From positions 11,905 to 75,904 of the forward strand of contig JAGXFP010000050.1 in assembly GCA_024637225.1 (NCBI GenBank): 64,000 nt of DNA. Reading direction: 5' to 3'. Made by a program: the position numbers and the translations under genes. A model generated the notes under the pieces. It had not been told where the DNA came from, did not search any database, and was given only the letters and a program-made list of their open reading frames with translations. Below are positions 1 to 19,990 of this stretch, in pieces. Position 1 is the first letter of the stretch, and each line of letters opens with the position of its first letter. Source of the DNA: Desulfobacterales bacterium (GTDB lineage Bacteria > Desulfobacterota > Desulfobulbia > Desulfobulbales > JAGXFP01).

Positions 1-37
1 TCCAAATCAGTATTGCGAACTCACCCAAAGGGGAGCC

Positions 38-931
38 CTATTGGGCAGAAGTAAATATCTGGACGCGGCTGTTTCCGCGGTCTGCGATAAATAAATCACC
101 GCCGGGGTTGATACACAACTGGCCTGGATAATAGAATTGGGCATTTTTCCAGCCGTATCCGAATCTATGTCCCAGGAAAGATCCGTCCTGATTCAAAAGG
201 ACGAGACTGCCCCCATGCTTATCGATCAGGTAAATAGTGCCCCTTCCGTCTACAGCTATATTGGTCGGAAAATTCGCGTACTCGCCGAGTTCCGAGGCCA
301 GCGCCGTGAACCGGTCTTCACCAGGTGCGGCGGCATACAAGGCAACTTCGGTACTGTCCACCAGAAAGACGTTGCCCTGCCGGTCAACGGCGAGGTCGGA
401 AAAGAACCCCGCCTCCTCCGGCACCGGAATATGCCTGAGGTAACTGCCTTCGGCATCGAGAATAAGCACGACTCCCTCTGAGATATCAAGTATGTGGATT
501 GTGTCATTCCGATCGATCTTGAAGCTTCTCGGTATCATTTTCCGGGAAACCGGAGAACCTTTCGGAGCAAGATATCCCTGGTCCGAACCATCGGCGTTGA
601 TGATCACGATTCGCCTGTCTCCGTCAAGGGCGTAGATTACCCCTTTGGAGTTTATCTGCACTATAATCGGAGAATTAACGGGCATTTCGGGAGCCGCCGG
701 TTTCGCGACCCCGTCACTGAAGGTATATTTTACCAGCCGGTTGTTTCCTGTATCGGCAACGACAAAATAATCATCGGTGCAACCCACTCCTTCCGGATGT
801 TTCAGACCGGTACCCTCAACCCCGTCATAGACGGACTGGGCGAAATTTATTTGTAAGGAATCCGCGGCAAAGGCAGCCGGCCCGGCGGAAATTGCATAGG
901 ACAATACTATGAACAGGGCTGATATCCGCAT
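38..931 (-). CDS. Secreted NHL-repeat six-bladed beta-propeller protein (297 aa)
   Basis: I trimmed ORF 38..1153 to Met75, which begins MRISALFIVLSYAISAGPAAFA (signal peptide). This start lies 7 nt after the stop of the upstream cytochrome gene. NHL-type blades are visible (FVVADTGNNRLVKY, IYLIDKHGGSLVLL, LFIADRGNSRVQIF). Confidence 0.75.
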   Translation of the reverse strand: MRISALFIVLSYAISAGPAAFAADSLQINFAQSVYDGVEGTGLKHPEGVGCTDDYFVVADTGNNRLVKYTFSDGVAKPAAPEMPVNSPIIVQINSKGVIYALDGDRRIVIINADGSDQGYLAPKGSPVSRKMIPRSFKIDRNDTIHILDISEGVVLILDAEGSYLRHIPVPEEAGFFSDLAVDRQGNVFLVDSTEVALYAAAPGEDRFTALASELGEYANFPTNIAVDGRGTIYLIDKHGGSLVLLNQDGSFLGHRFGYGWKNAQFYYPGQLCINPGGDLFIADRGNSRVQIFTSAQ

Positions 932-938
932 TATATTA

Positions 939-2210
939 TTACCTCCGAAAAGTGGCATGACATTGAATACATAACTCATTGGCAGTCGAGAAATGAAGGA
1001 AATGGGTGTTCTCGGTTCCATGGGTTCGATGGCAGCTCGTGCATTCGACGCTGCGATTTTTATTGCGCGGATCAGCAAATTCATCACCGATGGGATGGGT
1101 GGTATGACCTCGCCAGTCATGACAATCTCCACACAAATTCCTTTGCGAATCATCCTTCAGCATGAATTGATAATCAGAGCTATGGGGTAAATGGCATTCA
1201 CCGCAATCTCCTTCCGCGATGGGCGGATGCTCGGTTACCGATCTCTCCTGTCTCGCCAATGTGTCGGCATGACACGCGCCGCACACCGCCAGCATGGTTC
1301 CCCGCATAAGTTTTTTCTCCGGCGAGGCGTGGGGGGTGTGACAGTTCATGCAGTTTTTATCGTCAGCCAGGGGCCAGTGCAGATGGGACTTGTTCAGGGT
1401 ATCGTTGATCATTTCATAATGACAGGCCATGCAGGTTTCATATCCCGACGCCTTGAGGGCAAAAGGCTCGGTAGAGCCGGGGGCTACATGACACTGGCCA
1501 CAACTGCCCTTGGCAACCGGATCATGGACGTTATCGTACAGCATTGCCCCCTGGTTCGATCCATGCGGGTCATGACAGGTAGTGCAATCGGCCTTGCCCA
1601 CCGGGTAACCCTTGTGAATTGTCTGGAAGGCCTCCCCGTCCGTTTCGTGGCATTGCAGACAGAGCGCGGGGGTCGCCTCATTGAGAAGTTTGATATTGTC
1701 CGCGGAAGCATGGGCGCCGTGGCAATCGAGACAATTTTCCCTGACCGGGGGGTGGCTGAATTTGTTATTTTCAATTTTGTCGCCAAGTTCCCGGTGACAT
1801 TCAAAACAGAGCTCCTCGCCCTTTTTCAGCAGATTGGAGCGGTTTTGCGAGGCGTGGGGATCATGGCATAAGGTACATTGCCCTTCACCCACGACTTTGT
1901 GGATACTTCGCGCCTCATCCGGGATAAGGTCGCCGTGGCAGGTATAGCATATGGTCTCCTGGGGCGAGGCCATCATCATTTCAAAGTTCGAGGCATGGGG
2001 GTTATGACAGCCGACACACTCGCCATCCGCCAACGGTGTGTGGACGGAGGACTTTTTCATTGCTTCCCGCACCCCGTCGTGACAGCCCAGACAGAGTTTA
2101 CCGCCGGCGCCTTCCTTCAATTTAAAATCAGCCCGCGCATAACAGAGCGCGGGCAGGAAGATGGCGACAGCAACAAGTAATAGAACAGGCTTAGCATTTC
2201 GAAATTTCAT
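939..2210 (-). CDS. Multiheme c-type cytochrome with 16 CXXCH motifs (423 aa)
   Basis: I counted 16 CXXCH motifs. N-terminal signal peptide MKFRNAKPVLLLVAVAIFLPALCYA. Repeated CxxCHxPH(A/G/S)S units match the 'doubled CXXCH' architecture. Confidence 0.9.
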   Translation of the reverse strand: MKFRNAKPVLLLVAVAIFLPALCYARADFKLKEGAGGKLCLGCHDGVREAMKKSSVHTPLADGECVGCHNPHASNFEMMMASPQETICYTCHGDLIPDEARSIHKVVGEGQCTLCHDPHASQNRSNLLKKGEELCFECHRELGDKIENNKFSHPPVRENCLDCHGAHASADNIKLLNEATPALCLQCHETDGEAFQTIHKGYPVGKADCTTCHDPHGSNQGAMLYDNVHDPVAKGSCGQCHVAPGSTEPFALKASGYETCMACHYEMINDTLNKSHLHWPLADDKNCMNCHTPHASPEKKLMRGTMLAVCGACHADTLARQERSVTEHPPIAEGDCGECHLPHSSDYQFMLKDDSQRNLCGDCHDWRGHTTHPIGDEFADPRNKNRSVECTSCHRTHGTENTHFLHFSTANELCIQCHATFRR

Positions 2211-2225
2211 ATAGATTACCTTCCC

Positions 2226-4211
2226 TTACTTCTGTTCAACGATATGGCAGGGATCACACGTTCTCGCGGCAAAAGGTCCATGGAGCTTCTGCTTGAAAAA
2301 TTTCGCATCCTGTGAAGTATGCGGCGTGTGACAATTTACGCAATTAATTACCGCGGGGTCGATGTCAAGATGGGCGTCCTTGAAGCTGTCGCGGTCATAA
2401 TCATGGCATTGGCTGCAGAGATCATGAAGCGGCTGGCTCATCAGCATTGCCGCGTCATCGGAGTAATGCGGCTGATGACAGCGCAGACAATCCCTGGCTG
2501 CCGGCGGATGAATTCTTTCGGTAGCCATTTTATCCTGGATGTCCTGGTGACAGTTAAGGCAAAGCTCGGGGCTTGGGGCCTTAAGCAGGGTTTCCAGCCC
2601 CGATTTATGTGGATCATGGCACTCGGTGCATTGGCCGTCCATCACCACCTGGTGCCTGCTTTCAGCGCTTTTCAGGCCATCCTCAAGGTAATCGTGACAG
2701 GAAAAACAAAGCGACTCCTGCTCAGCCACCAGCATCCCCTTCATATCGCTGGCATGGGGGTCGTGGCAGGTGAGGCAGTCGTCATCCGCAAAGGGAGAAT
2801 GGACATTTTCCCCCGACTCCTTTTTCATTAACGGCTCATGGCATTGCTCACAGAGCTTGTTTCCCCTTTCCTTGAGGAATTTTTTATCGGCGGAGCCGTG
2901 GCCGCTGTGGCAGGCGATGCAGTTGCCCTTCCGGACGGGATCATGAATATTTTTTTTCTGATATTTACTTTCCAGATCCATGTGGCATGAATAACAGACC
3001 TCATCCCCCCTTTTAACCATAAGGTTTGGCAGGTTCGCGCCGTGGGGATTGTGACAGGTTGCGCAATCCGCATCAGCATACGGAGGATGTTGATTTTTCA
3101 GTTTTTTACCCGCGGCCTCGGTCCCGGCGTGGCAGCTGAAACACAACTGATCGACCGCCATGCCGAGCTGGGCCTGATGGGAGCCTGAATGCGCGGCATG
3201 GCAGGATAGACAGCCATCTTCACCCTGCAGGGGTTCATGGGGGAATCTGACGTTTTTCCCGGGATCCTGATGACAGGTAAAGCAGAGAGAATTACCGCCG
3301 GCAACAAGGAGATGCTGCTGATCAGATGTGTGGACATCGTGGCAGGAGAGACATTCACCGCTTTTAAATGGTTCATGCTCGACATCGCCGCCTGCCATCA
3401 AATCGGCTTTATCGTGACAGAAAAAACAGAGCTCCTCGCCTTCCGCCTGAACGGCAAATGGCTTGGCGCCGGAGGGTGATTCGTGGCAGTCTCCGCAAGA
3501 TGCCGATCCAACCGGTTCATGGATGCTGGCTTTCATCAGATTTTTCCGCATTGAGGAGTGCGGCGCGTGACAGCTGTTACAGTCCTCTTTCTCAACGGGA
3601 TATTCACCGTGGGCTTTTTTGAATTTGCCGGCATCACTGTCATGGCAGGAAAGGCAGAGTTCGGGGGCCGTACTGCTGAGCAGATTTTTTTCAGGGGCGG
3701 CATGAACGCTGTGGCAACTCAGGCAGCCATCGTCCTTGATCACCCGGTGTACGACTTTACGATTGTATTCTTCCTCGTCGTGACAGGCAAAACAGACCGA
3801 ATTGCCTTCTGACGCCAGGAGATACGGATCATCGGAGGCATGGGGGTTGTGACAGGAAATACATTCCCCCCTTCTCACCGCGGTATGGACATTCTCCTGG
3901 TTCAGCTTGAGATCCTCAACCTTATGACAGGTATAACAGAGGTTATTCCCATCTTCTTTAAGGATGAGTTTCGCGACTACGCCATGCCGGAGATGACACT
4001 CTTCGCATTTTTCTTCCGCGACCACCTTATGGACGTTCTTCATGGAAAGATACTTTTTGCTGAAATCCGTATGACAGTCCACGCAGCCTTTTTTGGTGAA
4101 TTTCCTTCTCGCGGCCTCGGAATCTTCACTGAAAGCCAAGGCGATCAGGCAGCAGGCGATAACAGCCGCTCCTAAAACGGATAGTTTGCGTTTAAGATTA
4201 TTATTCAACAT
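2226..4211 (-). CDS. Multiheme c-type cytochrome with 26 CXXCH motifs (661 aa)
   Basis: I counted 26 CXXCH motifs, arranged as 13 pairs of about 50 aa each. The hydrophobic N-terminus LSVLGAAVIACCLIALAF is a signal peptide or possible lipobox VIAC. It ends 15 nt upstream of the 16-heme gene. Confidence 0.9.
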   Translation of the reverse strand: MLNNNLKRKLSVLGAAVIACCLIALAFSEDSEAARRKFTKKGCVDCHTDFSKKYLSMKNVHKVVAEEKCEECHLRHGVVAKLILKEDGNNLCYTCHKVEDLKLNQENVHTAVRRGECISCHNPHASDDPYLLASEGNSVCFACHDEEEYNRKVVHRVIKDDGCLSCHSVHAAPEKNLLSSTAPELCLSCHDSDAGKFKKAHGEYPVEKEDCNSCHAPHSSMRKNLMKASIHEPVGSASCGDCHESPSGAKPFAVQAEGEELCFFCHDKADLMAGGDVEHEPFKSGECLSCHDVHTSDQQHLLVAGGNSLCFTCHQDPGKNVRFPHEPLQGEDGCLSCHAAHSGSHQAQLGMAVDQLCFSCHAGTEAAGKKLKNQHPPYADADCATCHNPHGANLPNLMVKRGDEVCYSCHMDLESKYQKKNIHDPVRKGNCIACHSGHGSADKKFLKERGNKLCEQCHEPLMKKESGENVHSPFADDDCLTCHDPHASDMKGMLVAEQESLCFSCHDYLEDGLKSAESRHQVVMDGQCTECHDPHKSGLETLLKAPSPELCLNCHQDIQDKMATERIHPPAARDCLRCHQPHYSDDAAMLMSQPLHDLCSQCHDYDRDSFKDAHLDIDPAVINCVNCHTPHTSQDAKFFKQKLHGPFAARTCDPCHIVEQK

Positions 4212-4241
4212 TATCAGTCCGTTCTTCCATGGGGGTTATTA

Positions 4242-4338
4242 AATGATGGCTTCGCAAAAAAATCGACCTCCTGCGCCGTGGCGAATTTTATCGAACTTCT
4301 TGCTTAGCCATTCGATGACCTTCTGCGACTTTGTCATT
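4242..4338. repeat. Short imperfect-palindrome intergenic element, a degenerate relative of the 33871-34272 repeat family
   Basis: aatgatggcttcgcaaaaaaatcg...gcttagccat...cgatgaccttctgcgactttgtcatt. The arms are roughly complementary. The strings 'tcgcaaaaa..tcg' and 'gcttagccat' match the reverse complement of the tandem unit at 33871. Confidence 0.35.
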
Positions 4339-4391
4339 AAATGATTTATTAATTTTTATTCTTCCGGGCCGGATACTATTGGCGCCTTTTC

Positions 4392-6161
4392 TCACTTACC
4401 GGTATCCGTCAGAAGAATCCTGACGGGATATACTTCCTTGAGCTTCAAGATCCATTCGTCAAGCACCTCTTCGCTTTTCAGACTGAAAACTTTCTTGAGC
4501 ACTTCATCCCTGGCCTCTTCATAGGGCTGCGCTTCCGGCGGATAGACATCGGTCATCAAAAGTACGTAATAAAATTCGCCGTCGGCTGGAGCGTATAGAA
4601 GGGAGTCGCCCTTTTTGACGTCATGGGCGAGCTCTTGCAGATCTTCCGGCAGGGCTGCCAGGCTCAAGAGCTTCTTGTCCAGGGGCAATACTCCATTCGT
4701 GTCCGGGTCGACCAGATTGACGGCATTAGCCGAAATCCAGTTGAAATCGGCTCCCTTGCGCAGTCTGGACAGAGCGAGCTCCGCGTCCGGCCGATTATGG
4801 AGGACCAGGCTTTTTATCCGCAGCATGGTCGAAGAGGAATATTCATCGATATGCTTATCGTAATAGGCGCGGATTTCTTCTTCGGTGACTTCCACCTCGG
4901 GCAGAACGAGCTTGTTCATGAATGTATTGAAGATGACCGATCTTTCAAACTCCTCTACCTTCCTTTTGAAACCTTCCGTCTGGTCAAGACCGAGGCGACG
5001 CGCCTCATAATCGCTGGTGTATCTGAAAATCTTGTTCGCAAGGATTTTCTCTTTGCGGTCATTGACCATTTTCAATTTAGCGGCCTTATCCGCCCCGTGA
5101 TAAAAAGTGCCTTTAAGTTCGGCTGCAAGTTCTGCGACGGTATAGACGAACGGATCAGCATCTCCCTTGGCCTGGGCGAGAATACGCTTGTCCTGGACCA
5201 GTAATTCCAGGTCATTATCAAAATCAAGCTGTTCGTATAATTCTTTATCGACCTTGACATATTTTTCCTGCAGGGCAGCCCCGTATTCCAGAGCCTTCTT
5301 CTTTTGCAGGTTCTCATGAACCCTGCGGTAGGCCTCGTCCCTGGCGGATTGATCCTCGACAAAACGTGTATCGACCAGCCGATACAGGAGGTTGCCTTCC
5401 TCGGTGCGATAAATTTTGCTGTGAGCCCCGGCCTTCATTGCATGCACTTCCTGGGCAATCTCGGATCGCAAGTCCTTTATCTTCACATAGTCATCGTTTT
5501 TCTGTTCCGTTAATTTGCCTTCCTCGATATAGCGTTCGACAACCTGTTCGAAATCGCCATCCTTGATTTCCTCGAGAAACATCCGGGCGGTCGGACCTTC
5601 CGGAAAAAGAAGGGAGTAAAGCTTCACTTCCCGGGATATGTCTCGATACATCTCGTCAACCAGGGCCGAATCAGGCTCAAGGCCCCGAAGATGCTGATTC
5701 ATCAGTTCCTGCCGCAACAGACTCTGCTTGAAATCCTCAATCTGGCTCTTCACATCACCTCTTTCATCCAGGCCGATGTTTATTGCTTCCCGAAAAACAA
5801 GTCTTGCATTTATCAAGCGGTTCAAGACCTGCAGATACTCCTTTTGCCGTTCTTCGGGATCGTCGCTCAACTGCTTATCCTGCCGGGCAAGGGCTTTGGC
5901 CAGCTCATCCTTGGTAACCGCTTCATCATCATCGATCATCGCCACCGGTGTATCGTCGAAAGGCAGTGAAAAAAACGGGGTGGCGAGCTTTTTGAATTTT
6001 TCCGAAGCGGGCTCGGGCATCTGGTTGCCATCGGTTTCAGCGTTGGCTTTGGGCTGGGAATCCTCTCCTCGGGACTCATGGGGATAAAACGGCTGTAAAA
6101 GAATGGCGCCGCAAAAAATGGAAATGCATAGGAAACGATGTATCATTGGATTCACTCTCAT
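4392..6161 (-). CDS. Periplasmic SurA/PpiD-like chaperone with a parvulin-like domain (589 aa)
   Basis: Has an N-terminal signal or anchor sequence and a long helical chaperone-like region. The C-terminal segment (LRIKSLVLHNRPDAELALSRLRKGADF...) looks like a PpiC/parvulin fold, but I cannot see the usual GG(D/E)LG-type motif. Confidence 0.5.
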   Translation of the reverse strand: MRVNPMIHRFLCISIFCGAILLQPFYPHESRGEDSQPKANAETDGNQMPEPASEKFKKLATPFFSLPFDDTPVAMIDDDEAVTKDELAKALARQDKQLSDDPEERQKEYLQVLNRLINARLVFREAINIGLDERGDVKSQIEDFKQSLLRQELMNQHLRGLEPDSALVDEMYRDISREVKLYSLLFPEGPTARMFLEEIKDGDFEQVVERYIEEGKLTEQKNDDYVKIKDLRSEIAQEVHAMKAGAHSKIYRTEEGNLLYRLVDTRFVEDQSARDEAYRRVHENLQKKKALEYGAALQEKYVKVDKELYEQLDFDNDLELLVQDKRILAQAKGDADPFVYTVAELAAELKGTFYHGADKAAKLKMVNDRKEKILANKIFRYTSDYEARRLGLDQTEGFKRKVEEFERSVIFNTFMNKLVLPEVEVTEEEIRAYYDKHIDEYSSSTMLRIKSLVLHNRPDAELALSRLRKGADFNWISANAVNLVDPDTNGVLPLDKKLLSLAALPEDLQELAHDVKKGDSLLYAPADGEFYYVLLMTDVYPPEAQPYEEARDEVLKKVFSLKSEEVLDEWILKLKEVYPVRILLTDTGK

Positions 6162-6319
6162 CTTGTAGTTTTAAAAAAATTAATAGTAAATTTTACCATT
6201 AAACTCAAAAAATCAACATTTTAAATCTCCCACTCCGCACCAAACGGTTTATGATTGCACCGGAGGTATTCGGCTCCGCCCGAGGACGGAAGTTGCCAAA
6301 CATAAAACCCCCGTCACTC

Positions 6320-7567
6320 TTAGCTCCGGGAAGGATTGACCAGCAACCGCACGGTGGCTCTGGACAACTTCCTTAATAAATTGTGCGCGGTATATTCTCT
6401 GCCTAAATCAAAGAAGTAAACCCCATCCGTACCCCTGCGGAAGGCCCTGGCCCCAAAAACGATTTGTCTGCTTTTTTTTTCGATGATCTGCATGGAAAAA
6501 TCCACCTTGGGTTCCCGAGAGGCGCCTTGATAGTCAAAAACTCTGCCCGTCAGCACCAGGTCGGCACCTAATAAATATTCCCCGGTAATCAGATCCGTTT
6601 CCGCAAGTGATGGACCCTGTGGCATATTCGCCCGGATTTTGAGGAGTCCCTCTCTGACCATACCGGGCTCAAACACATCAAAATCAGTCATATTGACCAG
6701 CTCTCTGACGTAATGAAGCTGCGCGATAACCCCGGCATTCTTGCGTGGAGACAGATTGAGCATCGGGATGACAGCTATAGAGTATTGGCTGCCCGGATCA
6801 ACGAGGGGCGAGCGAAAATAATCATAGGGCATGTATTGCCTCTCAAACCATTGCCCCGGCGACAACAAGTTGCCAAGCCGCCCGCTCCTCGGTTGCGGCC
6901 TTGAAAGGTTCCGGCCGTCACCACCGGGAATCCCCGGAACGAAACCGGCCGCCAGAGAGTCGGTCAGCACCCCGACGACTTTTTTTATTAATTCGCTGGA
7001 TTTCCTGATCCGCTTCAGATCAAGAAACCCGGGGGATTCATCCCCCGACAGGCCGACACTGTCCATCCAGATGATTTCCGGACGCGATCCGGATGCAACA
7101 AGTCTTGTGATCAGGGAGATCAGCGGTGGCCCCGCCTCCTGGTATGCCTCCAGGGAGGTGATCAAAACAGCATCGACCCCGGTCTCCTCCAGCAGAGCTT
7201 CCGAAAGAGTTGAATTCACGCCGCCGGTATTGCGCATCCGGTGTTTTTTTCTGAATTGTTCAAGGCGGTTTTTGTCCAACACCCGAAAGCCTTTCTTGAC
7301 AAGCCCTGCGCCGATATAATTCTCGATCTCCTCCAGGGGGGCATTGGTGCCGCTGAGATTTTCAACAGGCAGGACAGCGATGAGAAAATCCCCAATGCCG
7401 GCCGGCCCGGGTTGACCAGTGGTTGCAACCTTTTGTGGTGTTGCCCCGTGTTCGGGAAGAACAGCAAATCCCTCTGTTTTATTGCGGGCGCACCCCCAGA
7501 GATTTGCCGCGAAGAGCACAGCGGTCAAGAGGACCGCTTTATTGAAAAAGCTTGTCGAGAAGCTCAT
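6320..7567 (-). CDS. Lipoprotein with two LpoB/DUF799-like modules (415 aa)
   Basis: I trimmed ORF 6320..7591 to MSFSTSFFNKAVLLTAVLFAANLWG|C (lipobox), which has GGAGAG 6 nt upstream. Two internal modules are present: FLIAVLPVENLSG... and YSIAVIPMLNLSP.... The gene overlaps the upstream gene by 29 nt. Confidence 0.6.
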   Translation of the reverse strand: MSFSTSFFNKAVLLTAVLFAANLWGCARNKTEGFAVLPEHGATPQKVATTGQPGPAGIGDFLIAVLPVENLSGTNAPLEEIENYIGAGLVKKGFRVLDKNRLEQFRKKHRMRNTGGVNSTLSEALLEETGVDAVLITSLEAYQEAGPPLISLITRLVASGSRPEIIWMDSVGLSGDESPGFLDLKRIRKSSELIKKVVGVLTDSLAAGFVPGIPGGDGRNLSRPQPRSGRLGNLLSPGQWFERQYMPYDYFRSPLVDPGSQYSIAVIPMLNLSPRKNAGVIAQLHYVRELVNMTDFDVFEPGMVREGLLKIRANMPQGPSLAETDLITGEYLLGADLVLTGRVFDYQGASREPKVDFSMQIIEKKSRQIVFGARAFRRGTDGVYFFDLGREYTAHNLLRKLSRATVRLLVNPSRS

Positions 7568-8120
7568 CAACACTCTCCAGGGTAATATCATTCATCGGTT
7601 CGCCGCCTCCGCCGAACATCCGATCTGTCAGGGTTATTCCTCCTTTAGTAGAAGAGGCGCTCCAGATGACGGTGCCGGTTTCGGTTTCGCTCATTTGCAG
7701 GCTCAGCGAAATGATATTGGCGGTGCTCGCCCCGGACCTCACCAGATTGTATTCCCGAACCACTCCGGTGATAATGACATCAACACCGAGGATATTGGCG
7801 AGACTCTTGATTTCATCTACCGAAGGGGCCGAGGGATCAACCATGCTTACCCTCCTGATGGCACGATGCACTTCTCCCGGGGGCAGGACATAGAACGCTC
7901 CGGTGGCAAGCAGCATACTGGTGAAAACATCGCGCACCCTTTCCGCGGCATCCTGTTCGTTGGTCAAATTCGCGAAAGGCAGAACCGCGGCGGTTTCTAT
8001 GGCGGCGAAATCAACCATTTCATTATAATAAACCCCTTTCTCCCTGTTGGCGCATCCCCCCAGAAAAACGAGTTGTACACCGACAAGAAGTGCAATGAGC
8101 CCATGTATTTTCCCCTTCAT
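7539..8120 (-). CDS. DUF799/GNA1162-like lipoprotein (193 aa)
   Basis: Lipobox LVFLGG|C. The module AAVLPFANLTNEQDAAERVRDVFTSMLLATGAFYVLPPGEV...GVDVIITGVVREY is typical of the LpoB/DUF799/CsgG-N fold family. The family name is from memory. Confidence 0.55.
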   Translation of the reverse strand: MKGKIHGLIALLVGVQLVFLGGCANREKGVYYNEMVDFAAIETAAVLPFANLTNEQDAAERVRDVFTSMLLATGAFYVLPPGEVHRAIRRVSMVDPSAPSVDEIKSLANILGVDVIITGVVREYNLVRSGASTANIISLSLQMSETETGTVIWSASSTKGGITLTDRMFGGGGEPMNDITLESVDELLDKLFQ

Positions 8121-8144
8121 ATAAAATCTCCCAGAGTAACCGGT

Positions 8145-10364
8145 TTAATAAAAAATCCTGAGGCGAGCCCTGAAACTGTCGAAATCTCTTAATTCCCTGA
8201 TGGTTTCGCGAGTGCCGGTATTATATCCCAGGTCCAGGGATATTCCCGGCCCGACCTTCCAGGTCAGGCTGGGAGATATGCTCTTGGTAGAACTGTCCGC
8301 CTCCTCTGCCTGGCTATAACTGATCCTGAAACGCAAATCGCCATCCGGGAAAGGTGACCAGTTCACATTAAAATCCCTGCTGGAGGTGGAAGAATCGATT
8401 ATTCCTTCCTGCTCCCTGAAATTATAACTCGTAAAAGCACTCACAGTCTCTGTAACGCTCCACAGAAGCTGAGCTCTTCCTGACTGGGTCCTCCCGTCAA
8501 CCCTGTCGTCTTGTTCAACCCAGCTTGAGGAGTAGTTAAAATTTGCAACCAGCTTTGAATTAGGTCGTATATTCGTCGCCAGGGTAAGTGACTTGACGGT
8601 CTGTTCAACTCCGTTCAGCAGGGTGTTAAGCGAGTAACGCAGATCAAGATTCATGCTCAAGCCGGTATAAAAGCCGGCATTGGTCCGCAGGGTAAGCGAT
8701 TTGGAATCGGTGTCGCCCCTGGATTTTTTACTGTTAAACCCGGAGAAGATCAGCGACTGGCTGAGCTTTTCAAAGTAGTCTCCCTTGACGGCAAGACTGT
8801 ACGAATGATCCGTGTCATGCTCTTCACCCTGGGGAGAGCTTCTGATCCGATCCGTACGATTGACTCTGCCGTAGGTTGAAAATATCGGACTGAGGACATG
8901 ACGGAAATTAATTCCGTTGATCCATGAGCTGTTTTTCGAATCCCCGGGATCCGATTCCTGCTCACCGTAGGAAACATGATAATTAAAAATCGTTTTTTCA
9001 ACCGGGACCCAGCCGAGTTTAAAAGAATAATTCTGGGAAAGAGCTTCCGTTTCCCGACTGTCGCCGCTGACGCCTAGGATGGTAAAGGCTCTGATGTTAT
9101 TATAACGAATTTCGCCGGGTGCAAGGGTCAAAGGGGTGGTAGTCACCTTGACGCGACGGGCGTCGACTGCCGAGACCAGACGTATTTCAAAACGATGCTC
9201 GATAATGTTATAGGTGACCGAAGAGATCGAGCGCTCCGTCCAATCCAGTTCCAGCGGGTCAACAGTTTGATCATCATTACTGTAGAACTGCCAGGCCAGG
9301 GAACCGGCAATTTCCGCAATCTGGCTGGGAGAGAGCAGATCGGGGAAGTTTTCAGTATCATCGCTGAGTTGTATGTAGATCGTCGCCACTTCGGTGGAAT
9401 TATCGAAACCAAGACCGACGCTGACCGGATTGATGCCGCCATCCCTGCCGATATTGATGTCGGTTAACGGGTTGCCGGCGCCCACCTCGATCACTTCAAA
9501 GGGATCATTGCCGGTCGGCAGTGAATCATCAAATATATAAAACGGAGTGCCCAGTTCGGCAGCCGGAATATCGACAGTGCTGCCGGGACGGCTGAACTGT
9601 GCGTTTCTCTGGACAATCCGCGCGGATGCATTCACGTTGAATCGATCTTCCTTGTAAGTAAATGCCTTGGCGTAATCAACCTTGCCGTTATGGCTTCTGG
9701 ACCGGATTTCGGAGTCGTCCAGGTGGTTATAAGTATCGTTGCCGCTGAATCCATACTGAAACCGGTATCCCCGGTACTTGTACCTCGTATTGAGACTTAA
9801 CGTATCCCCGGTCGAATCGGCGGTCAAAGGATCATCCCGCAGTTCGGTCCGCCGGAAATTGAGATTAACCGGCGGAAGATCGACCGGATTCCAGTTAAAA
9901 CTCCCATGATATTGATCGATCATGATTTTTCTCGTCTCTCCGGAGTTCAGGTCCGTTTCCACGTCCCTGCTCCGGTAACCCAGATTCAGCCCGTAAAAAG
10001 GATCAGTCAGCCTGACATTCACATAGGGACTGATCGAAGTCTCCGATCTATCCGATTCCGCCCCGGCGAGGTCTGAATCGATAATCCGGCTGGTTGCGTC
10101 TTCATTCTCATAGCTGGTGCCAAGCCCAAGCTTAAGGTTCGGATAGATTCGCCTCGTTAAATCAAAATGATAGCGCTGGGTCAACCGGGAGCTCTCCGAT
10201 TCGGAAACATTTCCGGTGGTCTTTCCGGTAGTCTCGGAATCGGACGAAAAATATCTCAGATCAGCCGTAAGCGAGATCCCGTCCGCATGCAGAATATCGG
10301 GCAACAAAAGCAGCAGCAATGCCGCGGCTGTCGAAATTATGCTGGGAACAGACCGGGCAGACAT
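8145..10364 (-). CDS. Predicted large outer-membrane beta-barrel protein (739 aa)
   Basis: Signal peptide MSARSVPSIISTAAALLLLLLPDILHA. Alternating hydrophobic/polar strand pattern rich in Y, S, T, N, D and G throughout. C-terminal ...FRARLRIFY ends in the aromatic residue typical of BAM substrates. Confidence 0.6.
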   Translation of the reverse strand: MSARSVPSIISTAAALLLLLLPDILHADGISLTADLRYFSSDSETTGKTTGNVSESESSRLTQRYHFDLTRRIYPNLKLGLGTSYENEDATSRIIDSDLAGAESDRSETSISPYVNVRLTDPFYGLNLGYRSRDVETDLNSGETRKIMIDQYHGSFNWNPVDLPPVNLNFRRTELRDDPLTADSTGDTLSLNTRYKYRGYRFQYGFSGNDTYNHLDDSEIRSRSHNGKVDYAKAFTYKEDRFNVNASARIVQRNAQFSRPGSTVDIPAAELGTPFYIFDDSLPTGNDPFEVIEVGAGNPLTDINIGRDGGINPVSVGLGFDNSTEVATIYIQLSDDTENFPDLLSPSQIAEIAGSLAWQFYSNDDQTVDPLELDWTERSISSVTYNIIEHRFEIRLVSAVDARRVKVTTTPLTLAPGEIRYNNIRAFTILGVSGDSRETEALSQNYSFKLGWVPVEKTIFNYHVSYGEQESDPGDSKNSSWINGINFRHVLSPIFSTYGRVNRTDRIRSSPQGEEHDTDHSYSLAVKGDYFEKLSQSLIFSGFNSKKSRGDTDSKSLTLRTNAGFYTGLSMNLDLRYSLNTLLNGVEQTVKSLTLATNIRPNSKLVANFNYSSSWVEQDDRVDGRTQSGRAQLLWSVTETVSAFTSYNFREQEGIIDSSTSSRDFNVNWSPFPDGDLRFRISYSQAEEADSSTKSISPSLTWKVGPGISLDLGYNTGTRETIRELRDFDSFRARLRIFY

Positions 10365-10368
10365 CGCT

Positions 10369-11787
10369 CTAGAATTTACCCATCACAACCAGGGCATGCC
10401 CACCCTCTTCCGTCTCCATCTCCGCCAGTTTTCTCTTGCTGACCAGATTAAACTTATAGACCATATTCCCGTCAGCCGTCAGAATCAGGAGCACATTTTC
10501 TTCCCCGTCAATGGCTATGAAATCTGTTCCCTGACCTGCCCGGAAGCTGTCGATAAACACTTCCGTTAACGGATCGACGACAATAATTTCTCCTGTTTTT
10601 TTGCCGATATAGACATAATTGCCCTGGGGAGCCGCCTGCACCGAAGCGCCCTCGCCGCCGATAAATATTCTTCTGGTTACCTGAAGAGACCGGGTGTCCA
10701 GAACCAGCAGATCGGTTGAATATTCGGCGAGGATAAACAGGCTGTCGCCATCCCTGCTCAATACACCTCGGACAGGAGATTCATCAAGTGGGACGGAAGC
10801 CAGCAAGCTCCCCCCGACCAGATCAATAATGGAAATCGTGTTTGCCATTGTATGCAGGACATAGGCTGTTGTGCCATTTGCTCCAGCCACAATCCATGCC
10901 GGCTCGGGATCAAGCACCAACCGTGCGGTTTCGGAGAGGGAACCGGTATCGATAATGCTGACCGTGCCGGAACCGTAATTGGCTGAAAGAAGGGTCCTGC
11001 CGTCGGGGGTAAGGGTAAGCTCGGAAGGTTTATCGCCGAATTCCAATCTGATCGTGCCTGTTATCTCCAGGGTCGCGATGTTGATGACTTCGATGATGTC
11101 GTCGCCGGCGGCAGCGACATATACTATGCCGTTCGGCTCGTCGAGGGCCATGCCCTTCGGCTCGATGCCGGTATGAATAACCTGGACAACCTCCATAACA
11201 TTCTTGTTGAAAACCGTGACGATATTGTCGTTGGAATTGCTGACAAAACCCAGATGATTCAAGGGCGGCATCGAAGTTTTCCCCAGAGCGAATCGCGGCG
11301 TAAAACGTTCACCGTCGGTGACGAGGAACTCAGATGAGAGCTCAATAAAAAGGGCAAGCGATTCGCCGCGGTGAATGGAAAAGTTGAAATCGAGGACCAG
11401 AGGTTCGGCCGGCGGCATGAGTTCCATGCCGCCATTTTCGGTGACCATGCCCGCCTGCTCGATGGCAAGGGAAATCCCGCTGTACCTCCCAGCGGGAAGC
11501 GGCGTCGCGCTCAGCCGCTTCTGCATATCGGTTGCCTCTTGTCCGCTGATGATCATCCTGGCCGGCAGTACGCTGAGCAGCTCGTCACCCTCCTCGGGAA
11601 TAACGGAAATATTCCCGATGGTAAAACTCAACGACTGCATCTCCTGGGGCAAGGGCTGAAGATAAAGATACAGTTCCCCCAGTTCGCCCAGCGGCTCCTT
11701 GAGTACGGTTATTGTCTTGGGAGTGCTGCATCCACAGACAAGAACCGTGATCATCAGAAAAAAAATAGAGCGTACGATTATCAGCAT
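10369..11787 (-). CDS. Lipoprotein with an N-terminal Ig-like (DUF4382-like) domain and a YVTN-type beta-propeller (472 aa)
   Basis: Lipobox VLVCG|CS. Repeats of the YVTN type are present (IVYVAAAGDDIIEVINIATLE, LLSANYGSGTVSIIDTGSL, AYVLHTMANTISIIDL, LFILAEYSTDLLVLDTRSL). Its stop lies 4 nt before the barrel gene start. Confidence 0.7.
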   Translation of the reverse strand: MLIIVRSIFFLMITVLVCGCSTPKTITVLKEPLGELGELYLYLQPLPQEMQSLSFTIGNISVIPEEGDELLSVLPARMIISGQEATDMQKRLSATPLPAGRYSGISLAIEQAGMVTENGGMELMPPAEPLVLDFNFSIHRGESLALFIELSSEFLVTDGERFTPRFALGKTSMPPLNHLGFVSNSNDNIVTVFNKNVMEVVQVIHTGIEPKGMALDEPNGIVYVAAAGDDIIEVINIATLEITGTIRLEFGDKPSELTLTPDGRTLLSANYGSGTVSIIDTGSLSETARLVLDPEPAWIVAGANGTTAYVLHTMANTISIIDLVGGSLLASVPLDESPVRGVLSRDGDSLFILAEYSTDLLVLDTRSLQVTRRIFIGGEGASVQAAPQGNYVYIGKKTGEIIVVDPLTEVFIDSFRAGQGTDFIAIDGEENVLLILTADGNMVYKFNLVSKRKLAEMETEEGGHALVVMGKF

Positions 11788-11814
11788 AGTTTAAATACTC
11801 CACTCACGAGCGAC

Positions 11815-12996: not shown

Positions 12997-13014
12997 AATT
13001 GCAGATGATAGCTC

Positions 13015-14001
13015 TCACTCCCCAACGATCCTGAAGACACTGACTCCCTTCCTCCCACCCTGGGCTATATAAAGAAGTCTCTTCTCATTATTTATGGCGA
13101 GATCGTCCGGGACGATCAGGCTGGAGTCTCGAAAACCCCGAAAGCCGAACTCGGTCAGGAAATTAAAAGAGCTGTCGAAAATCAGCACCACTGAGCGGAG
13201 CCGATCGGTAATATAGATATTCCCCTCGCGGTCGGTGACGATTCCGGCGATAACGCCGAACTTGCCTTTCGCGCCGCCGGATACGCCGAACATCTTGATC
13301 GTACCGTCCATCTGTCGCTTGAAGGTGGTAAACAAAAGAGGCACTGTGAAGAAAATATTTCCTTCCCGGTCGACATAAAATCCGAAAATAGTCATCGATT
13401 CCGGGTCAGCGAACTCGTCTCGACCGGGGCTGTTCTGGAAGGTATCTTTCAGTTCCAACAATTCCGCCTTGAGATGATATCCTTTCTGAAACCGGCCTCC
13501 GGTATCGATCACGACAAGATCCATGGAAGAAGCCTCGACCAGGTAGAGCAGGCCATCGATATACTGCACAAGGGATGGGCTAAACGGTTGAAAATCGGTG
13601 GGGAAATTTTGCAGGCTGATGGCGGGTTGGGGCTCGCCTTTATAATCGAGGCGCAGAATTTCACTAAATCCCTCCCTCCTCGGATATACCAGGTAAATAT
13701 CCCCCTCTGCGCCGATATCAAAATCCGAGGCGCCGGAAAGGGCGACATCATCACCCAATGTGAAAACCTCCATGCCGCGGCTATTGAAGATCCGCATAGT
13801 GTTATCCCGCGGATTAAGGGTAAAGGCCTCCGTTTGATCTTCATCCACGGCAACCCGGGAAAAGAGCGACGGTATAACTCCTTCAAAATCGGCCAGGCGA
13901 TGTAGGAAAACGACCTCAATGCCGCTTGCCTGGCTCGCGCCGAAAATCAGCAGGAAAATCGAAACAAGAAAACTGTAGGTGAGAAAAGATTTTTTCATCA
14001 T
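13015..14001 (-). CDS. Secreted NHL-repeat beta-propeller protein, first gene of the operon (328 aa)
   Basis: I trimmed ORF 13015..14067 to MMKKSFLTYSFLVSIFLLIFGASQASG (signal peptide). NHL-like blades are present (IYITDRLRSVVLIFD, LLYIAQGGRKGVSVFRI). An AT-rich region of about 350 bp lies upstream. Confidence 0.65.
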   Translation of the reverse strand: MMKKSFLTYSFLVSIFLLIFGASQASGIEVVFLHRLADFEGVIPSLFSRVAVDEDQTEAFTLNPRDNTMRIFNSRGMEVFTLGDDVALSGASDFDIGAEGDIYLVYPRREGFSEILRLDYKGEPQPAISLQNFPTDFQPFSPSLVQYIDGLLYLVEASSMDLVVIDTGGRFQKGYHLKAELLELKDTFQNSPGRDEFADPESMTIFGFYVDREGNIFFTVPLLFTTFKRQMDGTIKMFGVSGGAKGKFGVIAGIVTDREGNIYITDRLRSVVLIFDSSFNFLTEFGFRGFRDSSLIVPDDLAINNEKRLLYIAQGGRKGVSVFRIVGE

Positions 14002-14557
14002 GTTGTCTTTAAGTAAGCAAAAAAAGGACGCTTTTCTAAAAGTATCCATTTTATTTTCAAATACCACCGGACCAGCTTGATATTTTTCAAAATAGTTACC
14101 AACAACAAGCTGGCCCCCTGCCCAGGATAACTATTCAAGATTACTTACAAAATTAAAATTTTCGCTTTTATTGCAACCCCAGAATACTTCCTTCCTCATC
14201 CTCCGGTACTACCCCTGAATTATATTTTATAATATGAGCGATGTAAGAAACAACAGGTTGTTTTTCCGGCAGTAATATAGTTCGATTAGATAATGGGAAA
14301 AGGGTCATTTATGGAGGAGCAGGGAGTAATTGCAGATATTAAAATAGCTCATGCTATCAGCCAAGAGCTCTCTGGGCGCCGGGGATTGGGGGCATTTGGA
14401 CGACAACACGGATTACACAGACAGAATTGGCAAAAAGGCATGGGCTGGAGTTTTTCTTAGAGTTGATAATGAATATTGTAAAATTGGTTCCGGCGATTTC
14501 TCCTGGGGCTCGAGAGTTATTTATAGATTAAAAATATCTGGCCGGCTGCCACTGTTT

Positions 14558-16495: not shown

Positions 16496-16512
16496 CTCCG
16501 CTCCGGTCCCGG

Positions 16513-18228: not shown

Positions 18229-18595
18229 CTTTCCGAACCTCCGCGAAGGGAATGGACTTTACTGCAAGGGATCTGGTCCTGAATGATGTATCCGGCCGCA
18301 GAACAGCCAAATTAGTGCACAACAATTAAAACGGAATTTCTATGACTTACTTTTAACAAGGTGCAATGCAACAAAGTGCCTTGTCAAGAAATTCAAAAAA
18401 ATGAAGGGATTTATTGAGGGATTTCGCTATTGCGATGAAATATATTCTGATCGGCCCGGCGGCAGTTGCGCGCTCTCCGGTGAGGCGTTTCCCGGTCCCC
18501 AGAAGCAGTCAAGACTCGGGGGCCGCGCGTCCAAGAGTCAACCCTCCAGACCGCATCGGAATATATCTTCATGCGCAAACCAGCCCCTGAAGAGC

Positions 18596-19768: not shown

Positions 19769-19874
19769 AGTAAATCACCCTGCCCCATTTGTCAAAAACG
19801 ATGAATTCCCGAGAAATCCCGAAGGCCGAGTCGCTTGCGCGAGGGGCAAAACCGGCTATATGCAGGCTTATATA

Positions 19875-19990
19875 CCTGAATCCGTGAGCGTTCGAGAACG
19901 GTGTAGATGCAAGGCGGCAACGATGTTGATAATACTATTGGTATATCAACGAGTTGCCAACGCGGCAGATGCGCCGTTATCGGGCGCCCC
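19875..19990. repeat. Long imperfect hairpin element (family C)
   Basis: cctgaatccgtgagcgttcgagaacggtgtagatgc...ggcaacgatgttgata[loop]tatcaacgagttgcc...gcagatgcgccgttatcgggcgc. Its left end recurs at 21448-21473. Confidence 0.5.

Follow-up and report, generated by a model that had tools for sequence, protein, structure and literature searches.

Ten minus-strand open reading frames lie head to tail between positions 38 and 14067 of the window (the whole 64,000-nt stretch of contig JAGXFP010000050.1, assembly GCA_024637225.1, that was analyzed). Their coordinates are given in Table 1. A preliminary description of this DNA had counted eleven tightly packed same-strand genes; the strand and the packing hold, but the number does not, and the parts named in that description also total ten. 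After start refinement, the gaps from A to K are 18, 27, 4, 24, -29 (overlap), 158, 180, 15, and 7 nt, which matches the earlier reading of 4- to 27-nt gaps or overlaps plus two larger spacers. The reading frame 38-1153 was rejected as over-extended; its true start is at 931, with GGAGG upstream and 297 aa that align to an ortholog. The earlier inventory of products was accurate: the CXXCH counts of 26, 16, and 6 (48 in all) are exact, three products are propellers, and a signal peptide or lipobox can be seen by inspection at the N terminus of every product (lipoboxes read by eye as ...LVCGC in D, ...LGGC in F, and ...LWGC in G). Compared with a relative at 93 to 96% nucleotide identity, mismatches at codon positions 1/2/3 number 189/121/507, and on this comparison of sequences purifying selection acts on all ten frames.

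The single sigma-70-like site upstream of A should be read against counts of such sites across the whole region that are at chance level, and a consensus scan of 14002..14350 found no sigma-54 consensus. The spacer between G and H folds with an MFE of -46.8 kcal/mol (z = -4.8 versus 40 shuffles); a consensus scan found neither a terminator nor a promoter in it. One possibility is that this spacer divides two modules as an internal attenuator and promoter. The divergent neighbor is a PMT_2-like/TPR membrane protein, here and in Geobacter. At the other end of the cluster, no same-strand open reading frame of at least 100 aa follows K within the remaining 540 nt of the comparison locus L001.

Table 1. 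Features of the cluster in window coordinates, listed from A to K
Feature	Position	Strand	Basis or remark
Intergenic region upstream of A, divergent	14002..14350	-	One sigma-70-like site, CTTACA-17-TATAAT, at 14247-14219
A, secreted NHL-like beta-propeller, ~328 aa from MMKKSF start	13015..14001	-	Pfam SBBP; NCBIfam ScyF-NHL
C, OmcS-family hexaheme c-type cytochrome, 393 aa	11815..12996	-	6 CXXCH; OmcS PDB match
D, lipoprotein, N-terminal domain plus YVTN/YncE-type beta-propeller (OscD/GSU2500 equivalent)	10369..11787	-	YNCE 1.3e-12; TIGR02276 1e-23
E, outer-membrane beta-barrel, 739 aa, ~28 strands, C-terminal ...RIFY (GSU2499/OscE equivalent)	8145..10364	-	AF2 model
Beta-sandwich domain inserted in E, residues ~258-430	9075..9593	-	DSSP pattern breaks barrel
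F, lipoprotein, 193 aa, LpoB/GNA1162/PelC-like superfamily (GSU2498/OscF equivalent)	7539..8120	-	Pfam, PDB
G, lipoprotein, 415 aa, two F-like modules (GSU2497/OscG equivalent)	6320..7567	-	BLASTP; 29-nt overlap with F
G-H spacer, 158 nt	6162..6319	-	GC-rich hairpin, then AT-rich stretch
H, SurA/PpiD-like periplasmic chaperone, PPIC-type prolyl isomerase, 589 aa (GSU2496/OscH equivalent)	4392..6161	-	Rotamase_2, E = 5.6e-18
H-I spacer, 180 nt	4212..4391	-	Structure ordinary, z = -0.7
I, 26-heme periplasmic MtrA/DmsE-type cytochrome (GSU2495/OscI equivalent)	2226..4211	-	26 CXXCH
J, 16-heme periplasmic MtrA/DmsE-type cytochrome (GSU2494/OscJ equivalent)	939..2210	-	16 CXXCH
K, secreted six-bladed NHL beta-propeller, 297 aa (GSU2493 position), last in cluster	38..931	-	NHL 5.6e-14; 297 aa align to L001

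Cytochromes, barrel, and accessory proteins

The C product aligns over its full length (residues 29 to 392) with the OmcS structures PDB 6EF8 and 6NEF (E = 4.4e-64), and its predicted signal-peptide cleavage precedes FHNGG, as in OmcS, after a leader of the signal-peptidase-I type. All 12 heme-ligand histidines that are universally conserved in the family are present, including His16 and His332, and the 6 CXXCH motifs and 6 distal histidines are invariant across 15 aligned family members. Identity is 38% to OmcS and 37.5% to a GSU2501-like paralog; OmcS, OmcT, and the GSU2501-like protein each share ~40% identity with C. A neighbor-joining tree, unbootstrapped, groups C with D-adjacent hexahemes of Desulfobulbaceae and Geopsychrobacter in a separate clade. 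Judged by these alignments, C is an OmcS-family filament-type cytochrome and a candidate filament subunit, and it is not a strict OmcS ortholog. It is the single six-heme gene in the cluster. Filament formation has been demonstrated for OmcS alone, the functions of OmcT, GSU2501, and OmcJ being undefined (PMC12977616).

Gene I encodes one heme per 25 aa, with regular heme-motif spacing of 23 to 28 aa and 55 histidines. It matches Paired_CXXCH_1 12 times and scores 305.6 bits with TIGR03508, whose curated DmsE/MtrA cutoff is 192.2; in the PDB, MtrA of the Mtr complex (6r2q_A, E = 5.7e-19) is its sole sequence match. J is a paralog of I (29 to 37% identity to three registers of I) that barely passes the same cutoff (195.9 bits) and has 35 histidines for its 16 hemes. 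The histidine supply (55/26 in I and 35/16 in J) would permit bis-His ligation of all hemes. In Geobacter, oscI is GSU2495 and oscJ is GSU2494 (PMC13194489), and GSU2495 is an ~70-kDa protein with 26 hemes (PMC12977616).

The E product, described earlier as a predicted barrel, does model as a large beta-barrel, nearly all beta (AF2 mean pLDDT, 81.7). Pfam, NCBIfam, and PDB sequence searches with E returned no match, and MtrB_PioB (PF11854) gave none even at E ≤ 10. Among 894 Foldseek matches, the best barrel TM-score is that of MtrB (6r2q_B; TMq 0.41/TMt 0.46, at 7% sequence identity). At E ≤ 1e-3, the E family has 906 representative clusters, almost all of them 700 to 770 aa long. The inserted domain contains some of the protein's most conserved motifs (RFEI and RxIKVxT) and is kept in 10 of 10 aligned orthologs, Geobacter included. 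The orthologs' inserts match Pfam F5_F8_type_C_2 just below cutoff (E = 2e-5 to 8e-5), and the window's own insert gave no match to this profile. By sequence resemblance, the insert is probably a discoidin/galactose-binding-like domain.

The preliminary description was also right that two lipoproteins share one repeated module: by BLASTP, the 193-aa F module recurs in the 415-aa G product, in its C-terminal half at E = 2e-11 and in its N-terminal half at E = 0.038. F matches the Pfam families GNA1162-like (3e-6) and LpoB (1.5e-4) and, weakly (E of ~1e-4), PelC structures in the PDB (9h80_C, E = 2.4e-4; also 5t11 and 5t10); its single-sequence structure model is of low confidence (pLDDT, 34). 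Profile matches of G are weak (CsgG, 0.029; LpoB, 0.12). H is the SurA/PpiD-like chaperone of the earlier inventory (Rotamase_2, E = 6e-18), with NCBIfam matches to PpiD-type PRK10788 and to EpsD that are both below cutoff.

Correspondence with the Geobacter omcS/osc cluster

Direct alignment with G. sulfurreducens subsp. ethanolicus (locus L014, which ends after G) covers A and C to G. A matches a 327-aa protein (36% identity, E = 4e-55); C matches OmcS (E = 7e-78) and a GSU2501-like protein (E = 1e-75); D matches a 492-aa protein over its full length (34%, E = 9e-91); E matches a 725-aa protein over residues 28 to 714 (25%, E = 2e-39); F matches a 199-aa protein (51%, E = 4e-68); and G matches a 392-aa protein (38%, E = 3e-79). 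These six genes stand in the same order as in the omcS/osc ("omcS-companion") cluster that Shen et al. 2025, as cited in later papers, described in G. sulfurreducens. A corresponds in position and sequence to the 327-aa gene that lies upstream of omcS (GSU2505 position). D differs from the Geobacter protein in lacking its CSGCH motif. The earlier proposal of a parts list unlike MtrCAB or Geobacter Pcc is not supported as regards Geobacter: A and C to G match this cluster gene for gene in the same order. The cluster was rightly distinguished from MtrCAB and OmaB/OmbB/OmcB, its barrel having no MtrB_PioB match.

Synteny of A-C-D-E-F-G-H-I-J-K, or of as much of it as is visible, extends to Desulfobulbaceae, unclassified Deltaproteobacteria, Syntrophorhabdus, and Acidobacteriota, and the cluster is also found in cultured Geopsychrobacter electrodiphilus; in Gemmatimonadota, E-F alone is visible, on a short contig. 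A stands first in seven of the comparison loci, and H orthologs come after G in seven. After every GSU2501-type hexaheme comes the eight-gene block GSU2500-2493, a block tied to nanowire maturation and secretion (PMC12977616). The earlier statement that similar clusters occur in sulfate-reducing ANME partners was correct, an operon of 26-heme, 16-heme, PPIase, and propeller genes being present in SEEP-SRB1 (PMC5539420). The accompanying statement that such clusters are functionally uncharacterized no longer holds: as cited in PMC13194489 and PMC12977616, Shen et al. 2025 assign roles to the Osc proteins, with OscH in folding of OmcS, OscE/F/G in its secretion, and OscD in filament morphology (PMC13194489).

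Probable filament secretion and alternative readings

We conclude that the cluster is a further copy of an already described system and not a new conduit type; its earlier interpretation as an extracellular-electron-transfer apparatus is supported. It is probably the Desulfurivibrionaceae copy of an osc-type cluster, whose products would make an extracellular OmcS-family hexaheme filament, export it, and feed it electrically. Sec would export all ten products, and the three cytochromes would be loaded with heme in the periplasm, as their signal peptides and CXXCH motifs suggest. Based on the Geobacter roles, H would fold C, and E would be the outer-membrane passage for C, with F and G on its periplasmic face, possibly in a ring like that of PelC on PelB (an analogy of our own). 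Outside the cell, C may polymerize head to tail, with His16 reaching heme 5 of the next subunit, as its conserved ligand set would allow. A, D, and K may tune polymerization or bundling; in Geobacter, filament morphology has been connected with OscD. I and J would be long periplasmic wires between inner-membrane quinol oxidases and the filament base, and perhaps enter the barrel as MtrA enters MtrB.

The MtrA-type character of I and J would also fit a porin-cytochrome conduit, in which E is an MtrB-like sheath, I and/or J thread its lumen, electrons pass to C on the surface, and F and G just stabilize the assembly. The I score above the DmsE/MtrA cutoff and the marginal J score, the match of I to MtrA, the possible bis-His ligation of all hemes, and MtrB as the top barrel TM-score are consistent with this, as are the ~28 strands of E, near the 26 of MtrB. 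However, the MtrB TM-score is below 0.5 at 7% identity, PF11854 is unmatched, and the ~170-residue insert could fill the lumen or a loop. The cluster has no MtrC/OmcB-type surface lipoprotein cytochrome, the leader of C being of the signal-peptidase-I type, and the periplasmic partners in known conduits have 8 to 12 hemes, not 26. Geobacter genetics, as cited in PMC13194489, tie E/F/G to OmcS secretion, and a barrel threaded by a heme chain departs from that published view. We therefore regard a cluster that is mainly a trans-outer-membrane wire, and not a secretion machine, as unlikely, and it is compatible with the secreted-filament explanation if the barrel does both.

Expression data come from Desulfurivibrio alkaliphilus, in which the OmcS-like DA_765 rises from 7 to 13,832 RPKM (log2FC 11) and the 16-heme MtrA-like DA_758 is up by a log2FC of 5.7 on ferrihydrite/FeS; DA_765 to DA_757 are nine minus-strand genes (PMC12545173 and its supplement). 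This run agrees with C to K of the window in gene number and strand, and the stretch of six unlisted genes that separates DA_765 from DA_758 spans ~8.8 kb, compared with ~9.6 kb for D to I. Against the secreted-filament explanation, predictors place DA_765 in the periplasm (MISO supplement, PMC12545173), and it has been argued that neither growth on anodes nor the reduction of Fe(III) oxide requires OmcS wires (PMC13194489).

The "core four" operon (PPIase, 26-heme, 16-heme, and six-bladed propeller) occurs in SEEP-SRB1, Geobacter, and D. alkaliphilus; that its genes were not expressed in several cultured organisms respiring metals (Skennerton 2017, PMC5539420) also counts against the secreted-filament explanation. 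The cluster might alternatively be read as an electron-uptake apparatus that draws electrons from a partner or mineral, with the hexaheme as a surface cytochrome or filament on the acceptor side. SEEP-SRB1 and "Ca. Desulfofervidus," both of which take electrons from ANME, are enriched in the core-four operon, which has been detected in situ by metaproteomics (PMC5539420); heme wires are reversible in principle. Against this, the window belongs to Desulfurivibrionaceae, no ANME-partner clade (93 to 96% nucleotide identity to MAG JAWOIQ01), the likely D. alkaliphilus orthologs are induced with Fe(III) oxide as the acceptor (PMC12545173), and the trees of Skennerton place D. alkaliphilus with Desulfuromonas and outside the ANME-partner clade (PMC5539420), which makes dedicated uptake improbable.

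That E and F/G export or anchor a polysaccharide or other matrix component, with the cytochromes merely colocated, is highly improbable: PelC of the Pel polysaccharide exporter is the best solved relative of F, the orthologs' E insert resembles a galactose-binding domain, and the PMT_2-like/TPR neighbor recurs in Geobacter, but the PelC and discoidin signals are both subthreshold, a Pfam scan found no glycosyltransferase or polymerase genes within the operon, in every locus with a visible flank E, F, and G adjoin an OmcS-family hexaheme and D, and the literature, as cited in PMC13194489, ties E/F/G to OmcS secretion.

Three features of the cluster may be novel: the discoidin-like domain in the barrel, the weak resemblance of the small lipoprotein to PelC, and the presence of only one six-heme gene, which is not a strict OmcS ortholog. 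OmcS-like cytochromes of Desulfurivibrionaceae are strongly induced in sulfide-driven Fe(III)-oxide respiration (PMC12545173). The likely use of the cluster in this family is the respiration of Fe(III) oxide with electrons from sulfide (MISO), and the apparatus could also serve for electron uptake.

Gene content and conservation of the cluster

Between positions 38 and 14067, the minus strand of the window carries ten head-to-tail ORFs, lettered A and C to K (see the table; gene starts were refined by means of upstream Shine-Dalgarno sequences and orthologue alignment). From A to K, the intergenic distances are 18, 27, 4 and 24 nt, a 29-nt overlap, and then 158, 180, 15 and 7 nt. All ten products have N-terminal export signals, and the cytochromes C, I and J contain 6, 26 and 16 CXXCH motifs, respectively. 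The preliminary description counted eleven genes; a search for an eleventh found none, and the parts list in that description also amounts to ten. Its remaining account of gaps, CXXCH counts and parts is accurate, and the feature is real. Relative to the homologous locus of a Desulfurivibrionaceae MAG (L001), which is 93 to 96% identical at the nucleotide level, there are 189, 121 and 507 substitutions at codon positions 1, 2 and 3 of the minus-strand frames. Since the substitutions track the minus-strand codon phase, we conclude that all ten genes are real and under purifying selection. For the same reason, plus-strand ORFs within the region (e.g., 11371 to 12510) are not genes.

Features of the window, with BLASTP matches of cluster products to the Geobacter sulfurreducens subsp. 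ethanolicus omcS locus (L014)
Feature	Position	Strand	Description	L014 match (BLASTP E value)
A	13015-14001	-	NHL-like beta-propeller, secreted	327 aa (4e-55)
C	11815-12996	-	hexahaem cytochrome, OmcS-family	OmcS (7e-78); 437-aa hexahaem (1e-75)
D	10369-11787	-	YVTN/YncE propeller lipoprotein	492 aa (9e-91)
E	8145-10364	-	outer-membrane barrel, 739 aa	725 aa (2e-39)
F	7539-8120	-	LpoB/GNA1162-like lipoprotein, 193 aa	199 aa (4e-68)
G	6320-7567	-	lipoprotein, 415 aa, two F-like modules	392 aa (3e-79)
G-H spacer	6162-6319	-	158 nt, -46.8 kcal/mol, z = -4.8	
H	4392-6161	-	PPIase, SurA/PpiD-like	
I	2226-4211	-	cytochrome, 26-haem	
J	939-2210	-	cytochrome, 16-haem	
K	38-931	-	NHL propeller, secreted	
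Divergent neighbour	14351-16495	+	714 aa, multi-pass membrane N-terminal part, C-terminal TPRs	
Repeat element	19866-20003		~135 nt, long imperfect hairpin, -68.9 kcal/mol	
Sigma-54 activator	24477-25946		nearest to the cluster, ~10 kb off	

A profile of the E barrel recovered 13 genomic loci, Geobacter not among them; the Geobacter locus L014 was located through an OmcS query. Among the barrel-profile loci, every contig of sufficient length keeps the order A-C-D-E-F-G-H-I-J-K. The relatives include the Desulfurivibrionaceae MAG (92% amino-acid identity), three Desulfobulbaceae MAGs that have the cluster and a second, upstream hexahaem, unclassified Deltaproteobacteria, Syntrophorhabdus, an Acidobacteriota MAG, and a Gemmatimonadota MAG in which E-F alone is visible on a short contig. 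The cultured Geopsychrobacter electrodiphilus (L017) has the same cluster with two hexahaems. In one Deltaproteobacteria MAG (L012, 158 to 14073), the H-I-J block runs in the opposite direction and diverges from A-C-D-E-F-G, which indicates that the cluster consists of two separable modules. The G-H spacer folds far better than shuffled sequences: a GC-rich hairpin comes directly behind the stop codon of G, and AT-rich sequence comes next. The folding of the H-I spacer is unremarkable. The folding of the G-H spacer, together with the arrangement in L012, suggests that A-G and H-K are expressed as separate modules.

Individual loci have peculiarities of their own. In a Desulfobulbaceae-like MAG (L007, 2364 to 18867), A, E, G, H and I are each split into two ORFs, and a C-type hexahaem matches as a fragment only, inside the D-matching ORF, which suggests either assembly frameshift errors or a decaying cluster. 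In Geopsychrobacter (15407 to 18865), the G-position gene has grown to 1152 aa and has faint PKD/Ig-like matches. The ~135-nt hairpin element of the window lies between FemAB-like and phosphodiesterase-like genes, and a 93%-identical copy is present in reverse orientation inside the cluster of L001 (8440 to 8572), where it occupies the C-D gap that measures just 27 nt in the window. In appearance, this element resembles a small repeat of the mobile or REP-like kind.

Relationship to the osc and core-four genes

The preliminary description presented the parts list of this cluster as unlike MtrCAB or Geobacter Pcc. The system itself is already in the literature: a 2017 paper described it as an operon without a known function, and according to citing papers it was published in 2025 as the machinery of OmcS nanowire assembly. 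The L014 locus encodes, in order, a 327-aa protein, OmcS, OmcT, a 1017-aa spermine-synthase-like protein, a 437-aa hexahaem, and then proteins of 492, 725, 199 and 392 aa. The matches of A and C-G to this locus are near full length and their order is identical, so that across the osc (omcS-companion) region (GSU2505 to GSU2493) A and C-G are homologous and colinear in the window and Geobacter. Directly behind the hexahaem, the window has homologues of GSU2500, GSU2499, GSU2498 and GSU2497 (OscD, E, F and G), ordered as in Geobacter. L014 ends after G, and H-K agree in composition and order with the published descriptions of GSU2496 to GSU2493, as well as with loci L001, L002, L005, L013 and L017. 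The osc operon was described by Shen et al. 2025 (Cell Chem Biol 32:239), and PMC13194489, which cites that work, gives its gene assignments: oscC is GSU2501, oscI is GSU2495 and oscJ is GSU2494; GSU2495 is a ~70 kDa, 26-haem protein (PMC12977616).

H-K also correspond by description to the core four of Skennerton 2017, i.e., adjacent 26-haem and 16-haem cytochromes, a PPIase and a six-bladed propeller, all periplasmic, with signal peptides and no TM segments. That study gave no function for these genes and found no recognisable porin (PMC5539420). It treated the four genes as a unit, whereas the window joins them to a hexahaem/barrel/lipoprotein module. The taxa listed are SEEP-SRB1 (SEEP-SRB1a/c among the hosts), Ca. 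Desulfofervidus (Ca. Desulfofervidus auxilii), Geobacter, Anaeromyxobacter, Desulfuromonas and Desulfurivibrio alkaliphilus (strain AHT2; two copies), the last of which is from the same bacterial family as the window (PMC5539420). The statement in the preliminary description that such clusters occur in ANME-partner sulfate reducers was thus correct. We conclude that the 26/16-haem core four of ANME partners and the Geobacter osc genes are probably one system, and that the cluster in the window belongs to it, the operon having also been noted in the same bacterial family.

The window and Geobacter differ in hexahaem number, with one in the window and three in Geobacter (OmcS, OmcT and GSU2501). 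Wherever a genome encodes a GSU2501-type hexahaem, the eight-gene block GSU2500-2493 lies downstream of it, and some Geobacter genomes have the eight-gene block without omcS (PMC12977616), so the presence of omcS and omcT is not strictly defining. A GSU2502-type 1017-aa spermine-synthase-like membrane protein was not found by tblastn anywhere in the window. A histidine-kinase/sigma-54 regulator pair lies just upstream in Geobacter (L014, 2972 to 6500) and Geopsychrobacter, but not in the window. The window has 4 matches to the sigma-54 consensus versus 4.3 expected, none of them upstream of the cluster and gene A, and scans for sigma-70 promoters (14 versus 13.8) and terminators (23 versus 16.6) were near chance. 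No Rfam family reached its gathering score over the whole window. The divergent 714-aa protein beside gene A has a counterpart upstream of the omcS cluster in Geobacter, a PMT_2+TPR protein with which it shares 25% identity over 523 aa (E = 1e-19); such a neighbour is common to the window, L001 and Geobacter only, and may be a glycosyl/mannosyl-transferase-like accessory protein.

C aligns with Geobacter OmcS (6EF8/6NEF) over residues 29 to 392, which is the whole mature length (E = 4.4e-64), and it retains the complete haem-ligand set of the family. Exactly twelve histidines are invariant among 15 aligned OmcS-family members (H2, 13, 16, 51, 110, 144, 147, 243, 257, 332, 335 and 406 in OmcS numbering). 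Six of these belong to CXXCH motifs, and the others (H2, H16, H110, H147, H257 and H335) are the distal ligands. Wang et al. are said to have found in 2019 that H16 of OmcS is a ligand of haem 5 in the neighbouring filament subunit. The mature N-terminus FH(N/S)GG is also kept in the family alignment. C is ~40% identical to each of the Geobacter paralogues OmcS, OmcT and GSU2501. In an unbootstrapped NJ tree it joins the D-adjacent hexahaems of Desulfobulbaceae and Geopsychrobacter, apart from the upstream paralogues of those organisms and from the Geobacter OmcS/OmcT/GSU2501 clade. Judged by its sequence, C is a member of the OmcS family and is not an OmcS orthologue.

A second hexahaem paralogue lies upstream of the D-adjacent one in L002 (4790 to 5968), L003 (5381 to 6571), L005 (5323 to 6681) and L017 (8540 to 9679). 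These paralogues are ~42 to 45% identical to window C and are absent from the window and L001. L002 has an additional 264-aa ORF with 6 CXXCH beyond K.

The barrel, its lipoproteins and the large cytochromes

E has no sequence relative in Pfam, NCBIfam or PDB. Against Pfam it does not match MtrB_PioB (PF11854) at E ≤ 10 and gives just OMP_b-brl (E = 0.08) and BBP2 (E = 0.16), and its profile finds nothing among PDB sequences at E ≤ 1. The structural model (pLDDT 81.7) is a barrel of about 28 strands, in which a beta-rich domain of ~170 residues intervenes behind roughly the first eleven. The best fold match by Foldseek is MtrB (TM 0.41/0.46, 7% identity); the others are generic 22-strand TonB-dependent receptors (TM 0.22 to 0.29). 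By sequence-family membership, we ruled out that E is an MtrB, LptD or BamA family barrel, and neither sequence nor fold places it among the alginate or cellulose export, LptD or BamA families. The preliminary description had allowed that the barrel might belong to a characterised non-redox family, and no such match was found. The E family is large, as an exhaustive profile search at E ≤ 1e-3 returned 906 representative clusters, nearly all of 700 to 770 residues. The inserted domain is conserved in all aligned orthologues, and in four of them it matches a NedA-like galactose-binding (discoidin) domain just under the Pfam cutoff (E = 2e-5 to 8e-5). Because the insert of the window's own E has no such match, the discoidin-like assignment, which is made by sequence, is tentative.

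F scores above the cutoff for GNA1162-like lipoproteins (27.3 versus 25.9 bits) and just short of it for LpoB (22.2 versus 22.3 bits), and G holds two copies of the F module. The best solved relative of F is PelC, although this similarity is weak (E = 2.4e-4 for F alone and 2.7e-4 for a profile of 13 sequences). As in PelB/PelC (PDB 9h80, 5t11), a small lipoprotein, probably of this superfamily, is encoded beside an outer-membrane barrel. However, the similarity to that system is weak overall (E about 2e-4 to 3e-3), the window lacks a TPR-porin fusion, and the Pel proteins export polysaccharide, while a haem protein is the presumed cargo here. In the Pel complex, twelve PelC subunits make up a ring under the PelB pore. 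H is a PPIC-type prolyl isomerase of the SurA/PpiD-like kind with a Rotamase_2 match, and K has an NHL match. D has no CXXCH in the window or in nine other orthologues examined. The D-type protein of L014 (15790 to 17268) has one CXXCH (CSGCH) at its lipobox. Shen et al. are said to have described haem loading of OscD; if so, this feature would be specific to Geobacter.

The chemistry of I and J is of the MtrA type. Both are built of paired-CXXCH modules with ~25 residues per haem, and both have enough histidines for bis-His ligation at every haem. Against the DmsE/MtrA family (TIGR03508, cutoff 192.2 bits), I scores 305.6 bits and J 195.9 bits, which is barely above the cutoff, and the sole PDB sequence match of I is MtrA (6r2q_A, E = 5.7e-19). 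In contrast, the scores against the OmcA/MtrC model (TIGR03507) are far under its cutoff of 209.3 bits (52.8 for I and 54.4 for J). Since the ten haems of MtrA span ~8 nm, 26 haems could cover most of the periplasm.

Comparison with known conduits and proposed role

Like MtrCAB of Shewanella and OmaB/OmbB/OmcB of Geobacter, the cluster combines a large barrel with MtrA/DmsE-type periplasmic multihaem cytochromes. It differs from them in that its barrel is outside MtrB_PioB and has an inserted domain, and in that its MtrA-type cytochromes have 26 and 16 haems, compared with 10 in MtrA. A surface lipoprotein cytochrome of the MtrC/OmcB type is not found in the window, as C, I and J have no lipobox, and three propellers, two LpoB-like lipoproteins and a PPIase are present in addition. 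The earlier claim that the cluster is unlike MtrCAB and Pcc conduits is upheld. The same design is found in the OmcE clusters, which encode two multihaem cytochromes, two beta-propeller lipoproteins, a filament subunit and a large beta-barrel (bioRxiv 10.1101/2025.10.22.684050), but their subunit is OmcE, a tetrahaem protein that has no sequence relationship to OmcS. OmcS-like filaments have also been proposed in ANME partners (Murali 2023, PMC10553843).

D. alkaliphilus can use sulfide for the respiration of Fe(III) oxide, a trait conserved in Desulfurivibrionaceae, and OmcS-like cytochromes are among its most induced genes on Fe(III) oxide (PMC12545173). According to the supplement of PMC12545173, the OmcS-like DA_765 rises from 7 to 13,832 RPKM, the 16-haem MtrA-like DA_758 is up on ferrihydrite (log2FC 5.7), DA_765 to DA_757 make up a run of nine genes on the minus strand, and the six genes between DA_765 and DA_758, which are not listed there, take up about 8.8 kb, compared with about 9.6 kb for D-I in the window. 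DA_765 and DA_758 lie on the same strand at a distance of seven gene numbers, as do C and J. Based on gene numbers, strand and sizes, we infer that DA_765 to DA_757 are an orthologous cluster. The authors of PMC12545173 centre on DA_402, at another locus, and do not discuss barrel, lipoprotein or PPIase companions.

The Geobacter roles cited in PMC13194489 are folding for OscH, secretion for OscE/F/G and filament morphology for OscD. By analogy, the most likely mode of action is that H folds the hexahaem, E/F/G form an outer-membrane export channel, and D shapes the filament. F and G might assemble into a ring at the periplasmic side of E, like PelC on PelB. I and J would be long periplasmic wires that charge the base of the filament, and they may insert into the barrel in the way MtrA does into MtrB. 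Joining these elements, we tentatively suggest, as a possibility to which we give rather low odds, that the D-adjacent hexahaem as sole client forms a distinct, still unseen OmcS-family filament; that the ~28-strand barrel, its discoidin-like insert and a PelC-like ring make up a hybrid port at which the 26- and 16-haem MtrA-type wires dock; that one complex both extrudes the filament and injects electrons at its base; and that this complex is what Desulfurivibrionaceae use to respire Fe(III) oxide with electrons from sulfide. The purpose of the cluster in this family is likely electron disposal to Fe(III) oxides, and electron uptake through the same hardware is possible.

The cluster is best annotated as an osc-type nanowire cassette and not as a novel conduit. 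The conserved insert of E and the MtrA-type wires are where a link between secretion and electron injection should be sought. Cytochrome filaments are the current structural explanation of long-range extracellular electron transfer, and a distinct filament, if it exists, would bear on the question asked by the Bond laboratory of whether GSU2501, and thus a cytochrome of this type, is an uncharacterised wire (PMC12977616). To this the window adds a compact, single-hexahaem assembly cluster from a family that couples sulfide oxidation to Fe(III) oxide reduction, and this combination offers a clean natural way to test which of the hexahaems the machinery works for.
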